A stretch of 64,000 nt of DNA from the sequence record MN850636.1; one strand, 5' to 3'. How positions within the stretch are numbered: position 1 is the stretch's first letter; each line of letters starts with the position of its first letter. Below, in pieces: positions 44,693-45,723 of the stretch. A model generated the notes under the pieces. The model did not search any database, was not told where the DNA came from, and saw only the letters and a program-made list of their open reading frames with translations. The DNA is from Escherichia phage dune. Both the position numbers and the translations under genes were made by a program.

Positions 44693-45280
44693 ATGAAACT
44701 GTTAAATATCAAAATCACTGGTACTCGTCCTTTCCTGAGCCATAACGATACGCTGTCAGACCCATTAAACCCTCTGACAAAATATCACAAGTCTCTGTCC
44801 AGTAAGCGTAAAAAGACTGACGAAGACTATGCGCTCTTAGCAGAAAGCCAACTGGTAACTTCTTGTTACTACGATGAGCAACTTGGTTTTGTTATGAACG
44901 GTGAGATGATTGAGGCTTGTATCAAGTCTGGTGCAAAACTCAACAAACTTGGTAAGGTAATTGACCGAGCCATTATGCTGACAGATGTAGTCTTCCCAAT
45001 GACTATCAAGAACTGTCCAGCAAACCCACAAGAACTTGCTAAGAATCCAGACTTTATCTATGCTAAGTCTGTTAAGATTGGTACAGCACGAGTTATGAGC
45101 TACCGTCCAATCTTCCGTGACTGGTCTGTAGAGTTTGGTTTGATGTTTGATGAAGAGCAAATCACCAAAGAGGAACTTCTGATGGTTCTGGAAAATGCTG
45201 GTAACCTTTGTGGTGTAGGTGATTGGCGTCCACGCTTTGGTCGTTTTTCTGTAGAAGTTATTTCAGAAGGTAACGTTTAA
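44693..45280 (+). CDS. Hypothetical protein (start moved to ATG at 44693)
   Basis: GGAG RBS 10 nt upstream; 195 aa. Confidence 0.5.
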
Positions 45281-45282
45281 TT

Positions 45283-45723
45283 ATGAATACAAAAGCATTA
45301 GCAGCAAAGTTCAGTTACGGTGACACTGTATCACATTCTGAGATGGACACCTTCTTAGGTATTGTGAAGCCAACTTATCAAGGTGACATTGTTAAGTACG
45401 AAGATGAAATGAAGGCTTACGCACTGACACGGTTAAATCGACTTGAGAAGTTTATTGAGAAGCTTCTTAAAGAAGAGAAGATTTATCTGGTTGCTTCAAT
45501 GGGTGTTGGTTATCGTGTGGTTGAACCTAAGCATCAAGCAACTATTGCAAAACGCAAAATGTCTGGTAAAATTGGTCGTGCTTTAAAGCAAGCCACTCAA
45601 GCGATTGAGAATGTGAACACTATGGCGCTTAGCCATCAAGAACGTTCACGACTGATTGAACAGCAAAACCACTTAGCTGCTATGAAAGCTAACATTAATA
45701 AGCAACGTAGAAAACCTTTCTAA
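45283..45723 (+). CDS. Hypothetical coiled-coil protein
   Basis: 146 aa ORF, tightly coupled to upstream gene. Confidence 0.5.
   Translation: MNTKALAAKFSYGDTVSHSEMDTFLGIVKPTYQGDIVKYEDEMKAYALTRLNRLEKFIEKLLKEEKIYLVASMGVGYRVVEPKHQATIAKRKMSGKIGRALKQATQAIENVNTMALSHQERSRLIEQQNHLAAMKANINKQRRKPF

Follow-up and report, generated by a model that had tools for sequence, protein, structure and literature searches.

VIPR (Viral Interference Programmable Repeat) systems have been described in two 2026 preprints from one laboratory (bioRxiv 10.64898/2026.04.26.720920 and 10.64898/2026.04.26.720927). The central protein, Vipr, is small and RAMP-like, an accessory vap gene adjoins its gene, and the flanking vrRNA genes each have 9-16 YNNGG pentamers with a constant pseudoknot tail 3' of them. 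According to the same preprints, Vipr binds at a protomer:pentamer ratio of 1:1 with GGY buried and the NN dinucleotides exposed, and the filament recognizes double-stranded DNA that carries the same dinucleotides spaced by one skipped base, which leads to an R-loop triplex and to silencing of transcription. Any matching promoter-proximal DNA is silenced in this way, and the accessory protein Vap1, labelled 'WH-like DNA-binding', enhances the silencing. The vrRNAs as RNAs of ~100 nt, their co-purification with Vipr, the binding to double-stranded DNA and the silencing have been demonstrated for SUSP1 and P. fulva only. Within the SUSP1 clade, 18 of the 20 assignable guides match an Escherichia coli satellite phage, and VIPR has been proposed as an ancestor of the CRISPR RAMP proteins. 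Here, we analyze a stretch of 64,000 nt of Escherichia phage dune (MN850636.1), called the window below, to which all our statements on the genome of this phage refer. The subject is a pair of genes (44693-45723) located between GT-rich repeat arrays, and the locus around them.

Two other kinds of virus-encoded guides are relevant for comparison. In 2013, Seed et al. reportedly described that the Vibrio phage ICP1 encodes a CRISPR-Cas system directed against the PLE satellite; this is said to be a full type I-F system with both acquisition and DNA destruction. Archaeal viruses, as Medvedeva et al. are said to have found in 2019, carry mini-CRISPR arrays without cas genes and borrow the Cas proteins of their host.

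Two Proteins of the SUSP1 Type

We propose, with a probability of roughly 0.93, that positions 44290-46137 form a complete type II VIPR locus, composed of vipr, vap1 and five vrRNA genes, two of which lie upstream and three downstream of the protein genes. It is a textbook example of type II VIPR of the SUSP1 clade and hence already known as a system. The window belongs to a Felix O1-like myovirus (Felixounavirus): a megablast search with 44200-46250 returned 239 phage records at 80-96% identity, with Escherichia phage ESCO45 as the closest (95.8%).

The first open reading frame (ORF1, vipr; + strand, ATG at 44693 to TAA at 45280, 195 aa) encodes a RAMP-like protein that aligns end to end with PDB entry 36pp_D, 'SUSP1 Vipr protein' (E=6e-128), with 191 of 195 residues identical (98%). 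Membership of the type II SUSP1 clade is defined as >90% identity to SUSP1 Vipr, which places ORF1 within that clade. The published contact residues read G1, G2 and Y3 and hold both DNA strands (bioRxiv 10.64898/2026.04.26.720927), and all 13 that could be checked are present in ORF1 (H17, K33, R39, E71, M72, K82, G87, K88, R138, C173, D177, W178 and R179). A fourteenth contact, printed as 'T175' in the preprint, is V in ORF1 as well as in the deposited SUSP1 chain. ORF1 has an alternative GTG start at 44678, but the ATG at 44693 is favored as it yields the N-terminus MKLLNIK found in the solved homologue. The second open reading frame (ORF2, vap1; + strand, ATG at 45283 to TAA at 45723, 146 aa) starts 2 nt past the vipr stop and encodes the VIPR accessory protein, 99.3% identical to the product of the gene after vipr in SUSP1 (vap1).

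A first-pass annotation, made by a model from the sequence alone, had described two tightly coupled unknown genes of 195 and 146 aa. Their boundaries and their spacing of 2 nt are as described there, while the label 'unknown' gives way to vipr and vap1, given the PDB match and the SUSP1 orthologues. The accompanying statement that neither product has an assignable motif holds for Pfam, NCBIfam and PADLOC, which yielded nothing usable for either protein and no Cas match, but it fails against the sequences of the PDB. Both ORFs are labelled hypothetical in every phage record examined, and their PHROG matches, family 4652 for ORF1 (E=1e-96) and family 5926 for ORF2 (E=7e-76), both carry the label 'unknown function'. 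We regard both ORFs as real genes because these families match and because 117 phage records encode both proteins.

vrRNA Guide Genes

When the 64 kb were scanned for GG at a period of 5 nt, five arrays were found, all on the + strand and all at this locus. The gene pair thus indeed lies between GT-rich arrays, as stated in the first-pass annotation, and the window contains no other arrays of this kind. A leader hairpin of one of two types stands before each array, and the leader motif is confined to this locus within the window. Upstream of vipr, vrRNA U1 (44387-44493) has 15 YNNGG units (14 without the first) and a tail at 44460-44493 with the stems GTAG/CTAC and AGTCTCA/TGAGACT; it follows a type A leader hairpin at 44348-44386 (19-bp stem, -18 kcal/mol, z=-4.9). 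vrRNA U2 (44530-44617) has 11 units and a tail at 44583-44617 with the stems GTGG/CCAC and TGGTAG/CTACCA, behind a type B leader hairpin at 44501-44529 (-12.7 kcal/mol, z=-2.3).

The three downstream genes have 12 units each. vrRNA D1 (45785-45876; type B leader at 45756-45784) carries a tail at 45843-45876 whose second stem, AATCGGA/TCCGATT, is compensatory compared to U1. vrRNA D2 (45917-46008) follows a type A leader (45878-45916; -19.7 kcal/mol, z=-6.6), has a low-complexity guide and shows one A-C mismatch in stem 1 of its tail (45975-46008). vrRNA D3 (46045-46137; type B leader at 46016-46044) ends in a tail at 46103-46137 with the stems AAGG/CCTT and TGGCAG/CTGCCA.

Pooled over 61 YNNGG units, Y is a pyrimidine in 100% of the cases and the two G positions are G in 85% and 97%, with an entropy of the two N positions of 1.83 and 1.94 bits. 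The tails fall into three types. All five fit an interleaved pseudoknot with two stems, of 4 bp and of 6-7 bp, in which the types differ by compensatory changes, as judged from our own count of pairings, not from a covariance model. No Rfam family, including those of CRISPR direct repeats, was found for the arrays. The GT-rich arrays are vrRNA guide genes for Vipr and not the borders of a mobile cassette.

The leader motif, GTCTT..GGGT.TTT, was also considered as a phage-wide promoter, and this was rejected as it occurs at this locus only. The 19-bp stems of the type A leaders are long enough for an RNase III substrate. Our guess is that the leader hairpins are processing sites of a polycistronic vrRNA precursor. 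Most guides have TATGG as the pentamer next to the tail (e.g., 44457-44461, 45972-45976 and 46100-46104). In 17 of 25 guides from ten Ounavirinae phages the last NN is AT, and it is this NN that is usually mismatched with the target; the last TATGG repeat may be a constant scaffold rather than a part of the guide.

Transcription Signals

A sigma-70-like promoter (TTGACA-16-TATACT; 44290-44317, + strand), matching 11 of 12 consensus positions, lies directly past the ligase stop and before the first array. The site is conserved across the relatives examined, SUSP1 and Felix O1 included, and it is likely to be the start of a transcript over the upstream vrRNAs, vipr and vap1. Immediately 5' of vipr there is a weak promoter-like site (44648-44677, + strand; 9 of 12 consensus positions), and the annotation of phage ASO1B has a similar site. 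Past vap1, an intrinsic-terminator-like hairpin with a T run (45735-45757, + strand) is the only one in the region and is identical in SUSP1. The order promoter, U1, U2, vipr, vap1, terminator is the likely order of the transcript. These promoter and terminator calls are consensus matches only, and the count of promoter-like sites does not exceed that expected from shuffled sequence. The promoter and terminator that the first-pass annotation attributed to the gene pair can therefore be recognized as consensus matches, but the best promoter precedes the first array and only the weak site stands directly before ORF1.

Satellite Targets of the Guides

To what the guides might be directed was assessed on a satellite of E. 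coli, which we located by searching the 266-aa gene that follows the tape-measure gene of the phage against 5,426 complete E. coli genomes. A match was obtained in 474 of them (~9%), in a gene annotated as 'phage baseplate protein'. The satellite is an element of ~13 kb with its own tape-measure gene, the baseplate gene, a large serine recombinase, an HNH gene and sometimes a Dam methylase (L007 2709-16354; L008-L011 and L016-L021). Copies are inserted at yecE, tonB-yciI, ymdF-wrbA, dinB-lafU and near mdtG, and are often interrupted by insertion sequences.

For each guide, the NN string was scanned with a skip of 0-3 bases against 12 satellite copies with their flanks. With a skip of 1, 18 sites matched at least 79% of the NN positions, and with a skip of 0, 2 or 3 none did. 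Four of the five guides (U1, U2, D1 and D3) match the satellite at 87-96% of their NN positions. U1 (27/28) and U2 (20/22) both match the satellite tape-measure gene and D3 (22/24) a satellite gene of 128 aa, whereas the best match of D1 (21/24) is intergenic and precedes the first gene of the tape-measure operon by 46-80 nt. The three matches in coding sequence begin at offsets of 915, 1617 and 255 from the start codons and are in frame; therefore the skipped base is the wobble position. When the order of the NN dinucleotides was shuffled 200 times, the scores that U1, U2 and D3 had on the first five loci were never reached. D1 scored 19/24 on those five loci, which was equalled by 1 of 200 shuffles, and D2 was at background there. 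D1 also has a second match (20/24) within the serine recombinase gene of the satellite (L017 5699-5733, - strand).

The same rule emerges when the relatives are included. Among the 25 guides of the ten Ounavirinae phages, 20 have a target under skip 1 and one each under skip 0 and skip 2. In the VIPR-carrying phages, 13 of 17 guides found any target, and all 13 of these targets are on the satellite and at the correct skip only. The skip rule has thus been re-derived independently, on guides that the preprint authors may or may not have had in their set of 41.

Outside the satellites, the 20-base core of D2 has a sole exact match in IMG/VR (IMGVR_UViG_3300013800_000029; L012 8927-8955, - strand; 22/24 with the ends included), which lies antisense within a 92-aa ORF whose N-terminus resembles a signal peptide; as we estimate that ~0.1-0.2 such matches would occur at random, it is probably due to chance. 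The D1 core has no exact match in IMG/VR.

Two side observations concern the satellite itself. The 266-aa phage gene (58936-59736, - strand; phrog_3721) shows 91-95% DNA identity over its first ~560 nt to the baseplate gene in the top satellite matches, far above the identity of the other satellite genes, which suggests a recent exchange between helper and satellite at this gene. In addition, a BLAST search of the downstream array against the E. coli genomes returned only two satellite-borne vrRNAs. One of these (L005 19990-20130; E. coli 90-3040, inserted at tonB-yciI) has its own promoter-like site and terminator and a U2-type tail, with no vipr nearby, and no target was found for it among the loci scanned. 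Satellite-borne guides of this kind are mentioned in the preprint work on VIPR.

Transferred from SUSP1, for which these steps have been shown, the mechanism would be as follows. Vipr of phage dune would polymerize on the vrRNA with one protomer per pentamer, hide GGY and present NN. The filament would pair with double-stranded DNA having the same dinucleotides plus one skipped base, form an R-loop triplex and block transcription, and Vap1 would enhance this silencing. The guides would be aimed at the ~13-kb E. coli satellite, namely twice at its tape-measure gene, once at the 128-aa gene and once at the region upstream of the tape-measure operon. Judged from these matches, what the locus probably does during infection is to silence a satellite that parasitizes the phage.

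Several points weigh against this reading. The mechanism would be carried over from SUSP1, for which the two sources are preprints. D1-D3 sit between the terminator-like hairpin and the next strong promoter (46156-46184), with no recognizable sigma-70-like promoter of their own. GG is degenerate in several units of U1 and U2. D2 has no target in the 12 satellites, and a search of 185,579 species genomes for exact matches gave none. Furthermore, the scan covered only 12 satellite copies, and the matches, at 87-96%, are not perfect. Satellite carriage, finally, refers to the complete E. coli genomes searched, and the natural hosts of this phage may differ in it.

The Accessory Protein Vap1

An exhaustive search with Vap1 against 1.8 billion representatives found 234 distant relatives (E<=1e-3), with 21-37% identity among the 150 listed, while a word-indexed search found three clusters only. 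None of the relatives has a Pfam domain or a solved relative. The AlphaFold2 model, based on an alignment of 55 relatives, reached a pLDDT of 96 and consists of helix 3-9, strand 15-17, helix 18-25, helix 36-65, a beta hairpin at 68-80 and helices 82-109 and 118-143. Three helices of ~26-30 residues each (36-65, 82-109 and 118-143) thus stand behind a small N-terminal unit that resembles a winged helix, which bears out the earlier description of the second product as coiled-coil-like. In the model, the order of the elements suggests a winged helix (topology H1-S1-H2-H3-S2-S3) whose third helix extends into a three-helix coiled part, in line with the label 'WH-like DNA-binding' of the preprint. 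Three fold searches gave no significant match.

In Pseudomonas phage Medea1 (7e-49) and Gordonia phage MakoManhole (9e-12), the family profile (55 members) matches the gene directly after a Vipr homologue, and in Listonella phage phiHSIC (1e-9) it matches a gene near one. In Medea1 and MakoManhole, the vipr-vap1 pairs are flanked by GGY/NN arrays as well. Since the pairing recurs in these two phages, vipr and vap1 are a conserved functional pair rather than chance neighbors. In a CRISPRi-ART screen of SUSP1 on a laboratory host, knock-down of vap1 (agp038) was scored 'Semi-Fit' (1.29, p=0.055) and that of vipr (agp039) 'Not Fit' (PMC11879866, supplementary file 16). This difference hints that Vap1 may act independently of Vipr.

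Accessory Status of the Module and Alternative Explanations

The genes on either side are shared by ~259 related Ounavirinae records, and in 117 of these both proteins are encoded, with >=92% and >=97% amino-acid identity. The site of the module, between the ligase and the ORF87 homologue, is constant in every relative examined. In the window, the flanks of the gene pair are an ATP-dependent DNA ligase (43147-44283) and a secreted-looking ORF of 127 aa (46229-46612). Felix O1 lacks vipr-vap1 exactly between the arrays, so that the ligase is followed by a single vrRNA and the next gene; the first leader and the last tail type are kept, as expected from recombination between repeated parts of the arrays. 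The simplest route to loss of the module would be recombination among the leaders and tails, which are repeated in the arrays, and one or two guide genes would then remain. At the DNA level, vipr and vap1 are 93-98% identical between relatives and the arrays 58-86% over their length, the latter differing in NN sequence as well as by insertions and deletions of whole units. The module is dispensable and accessory, and it has been lost repeatedly. Knock-down of the SUSP1 vipr orthologue without a fitness effect on the laboratory host is in agreement with this (PMC11879866, supplementary file 16).

The first-pass annotation had called the two genes a cargo flanked by the arrays. In that they form a self-contained accessory module, variable in presence and without homology to housekeeping phage proteins, this view is upheld, whereas the arrays turned out to be guide genes and not the borders of a cassette. 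A mobile cassette proper, with the genes as selfish or passive cargo of an element that is bounded by the arrays and moves between phage genomes, would fit the presence/absence polymorphism and the deletion endpoints, which fall inside the arrays. It is also compatible with the higher conservation of vipr and vap1 (93-98%) compared to the ligase end in two of three comparisons, as recent exchange would give. Between 44284 and 46228, however, no integrase, transposase, recombinase or nuclease gene was found, homing nucleases included, and the module occupies the same site in all relatives examined. The arrays are directly oriented, their NN positions are hypervariable and they match external targets under a specific decoding rule, and ORF1 corresponds to a solved vrRNA-binding protein. 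We consider a mobile cassette very unlikely.

Even less probable is that the VIPR locus mainly regulates genes of the phage itself or of the host, with the satellite matches being incidental. It is true that VIPR silences any matching promoter-proximal DNA, that the vap1 knock-down of SUSP1 was 'Semi-Fit' on a host free of the satellite (PMC11879866) and that D2 lacks a satellite target. Yet none of the five guides has a self-target at >=80% of the NN positions in the 64-kb window, the best self-match being 21/28 (75%), whereas four of the five guides here, and all 13 target-finding guides among the 17 of VIPR-carrying phages, match the satellite at the correct skip only. The tape-measure gene of the phage (59736-61964) is instructive in this respect. 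The best U1 site within it (60874-60914, - strand) matches in frame at 20/28 and is possibly the counterpart of the satellite site, from which it is separated by a margin of ~7 NN positions (27/28 versus 20/28); a homologous site in the phage itself would thus be avoided.

That the arrays are iterons of a replication origin and the two proteins its origin-binding or initiator proteins, as their location among replication genes (DNA polymerase, ligase, dihydrofolate reductase and thymidylate synthase) and the short repeated motifs on both sides might suggest, was rejected, since iterons are conserved and two of the five array positions are hypervariable, half of the relatives replicate without vipr-vap1, knock-down of the vipr orthologue was 'Not Fit' (PMC11879866) and ORF1 is Vipr.

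Relatives With Guides Only

Six of the vipr-less relatives examined keep one or two vrRNA genes with differing guides; a seventh, Sf14, has none. In the complete genome of Felix O1, neither Vipr nor Vap1 was found (four diverse Vipr sequences served as tblastn queries; best E 0.36), and there is one vrRNA tail and no self-target (best 15/22). The Felix O1 guide region is present in 36 records. Six of the eight orphan guides have skip-1 targets, of which four are on the satellite and two in vipr of VIPR-carrying phages.

In the vipr gene of the window, the site of the Felix O1 orphan guide (L003 1288-1375) is located at 45161-45192 on the + strand, in frame over codons 157-167, with a match of 20/22 NN and the skip at the wobble position. 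The guide of SLAM_phiST56 (L023 988-1070) matches at 44693-44721 on the - strand, antisense to codons 1-10, with 19/20 NN and again the skip at the wobble position. For both matches, none of 1000 shuffles of the NN order reached the observed score in the window. The two guides also match vipr of SUSP1, Andreotti and ASO1B, at 19-20/22 (Felix O1) and 19/20 (SLAM_phiST56), while none of the 17 guides from VIPR-carrying phages matches vipr. In SUSP1 and Andreotti, the site of the Felix O1 guide (L004 2969-3000 and L001 4120-4151, respectively) carries a synonymous Leu CTG->TTG change that reduces the match from 20 to 19 of 22. Few synonymous changes affect a read (NN) position as this one does, and it may be an escape substitution.

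As a tentative proposal, which we regard as possible and somewhat short of an even chance, these guide-only phages may parasitize the VIPR of others: their orphan vrRNAs, if made, would load onto the Vipr of a co-infecting rival, upon which the anti-vipr guides would silence the vipr-vap1 genes of that rival and the remaining guides would hit the shared satellite. Alternatively, the orphan guides could be relics, against which the diversity of the guides and the intact targets argue. If parasitism applies, vipr is both a weapon and a target in the competition between sibling phages. The main text of the two VIPR preprints, to which this check was confined without their supplements, makes no mention of guide-only phages or of their anti-vipr guides.

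Discussion

With this analysis the window gains a full annotation of the locus, comprising five guide genes, two proteins and predicted targets. VIPR, as an RNA-guided recognition of DNA with a discontinuous code, is among the most unusual systems described in 2026. The residual novelty of the present locus is modest. It lies in those relatives that keep only guides, anti-vipr guides among them, in the leader hairpins, in how the downstream array is transcribed, in what Vap1 does and in D2 as a guide for which no target was found. In addition, VIPR is polymorphic within Felixounavirus, a genus whose members find wide use in the typing of Salmonella and E. coli and in their biocontrol. Therefore, the behavior of such phages on satellite-bearing hosts, or in cocktails that mix VIPR-carrying and guide-only members, may differ.

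The closest system is the type II VIPR of SUSP1 (bioRxiv 10.64898/2026.04.26.720920 and.720927; PDB 36pp). Both loci share Vipr (98%), vap1 (99%), the genomic position between the ligase and small ORFs, the leader/repeat/tail architecture of the vrRNAs, the promoter and terminator sequences and the class of E. coli satellite as target. They differ in the number of guide genes, as SUSP1 has one vrRNA upstream and four in all compared to two upstream and five in all in the window. The NN guide sequences are entirely different, and SUSP1 is a Suspvirus whereas the phage studied here is a Felixounavirus.

Class 1 CRISPR-Cas systems (Cas7 RAMP filaments, Cascade) resemble VIPR, according to the structures in the preprints, in the RAMP fold, the G-loop, the thumb, the polymerization on a guide RNA, the flipping out of bases at a fixed period and the RNA-guided recognition of DNA; the 12-residue G-loop sequence is visible in ORF1. 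In contrast to these systems, the locus in the window is devoid of CRISPR repeats and spacers, of cas1/cas2 and of other cas genes. VIPR uses its guide discontinuously, with 2 nt of each RNA repeat read, the other 3 hidden and a skip of 1 nt on the DNA; it is also phage-encoded and silences instead of cleaving. Identity as a CRISPR-Cas system was accordingly rejected: the repeat unit of 5 nt compares with direct repeats of ~23-47 nt, and neither protein has a Cas match.

As in phage ICP1, a lytic phage carries an RNA-guided system that matches a chromosomal satellite by which the phage is parasitized. Unlike the CRISPR-Cas system of ICP1, the locus described here has two small proteins, is not known to include machinery for acquisition and would act by silencing transcription. 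The relatives that keep guides only, the type phage Felix O1 among them, recall the mini-CRISPR arrays of archaeal viruses in that an effector gene is absent and some guides match close viral relatives. The difference lies in the lender of the effector, as the orphan vrRNAs would borrow Vipr from a co-infecting phage, and in the guides themselves, two of which match vipr itself.

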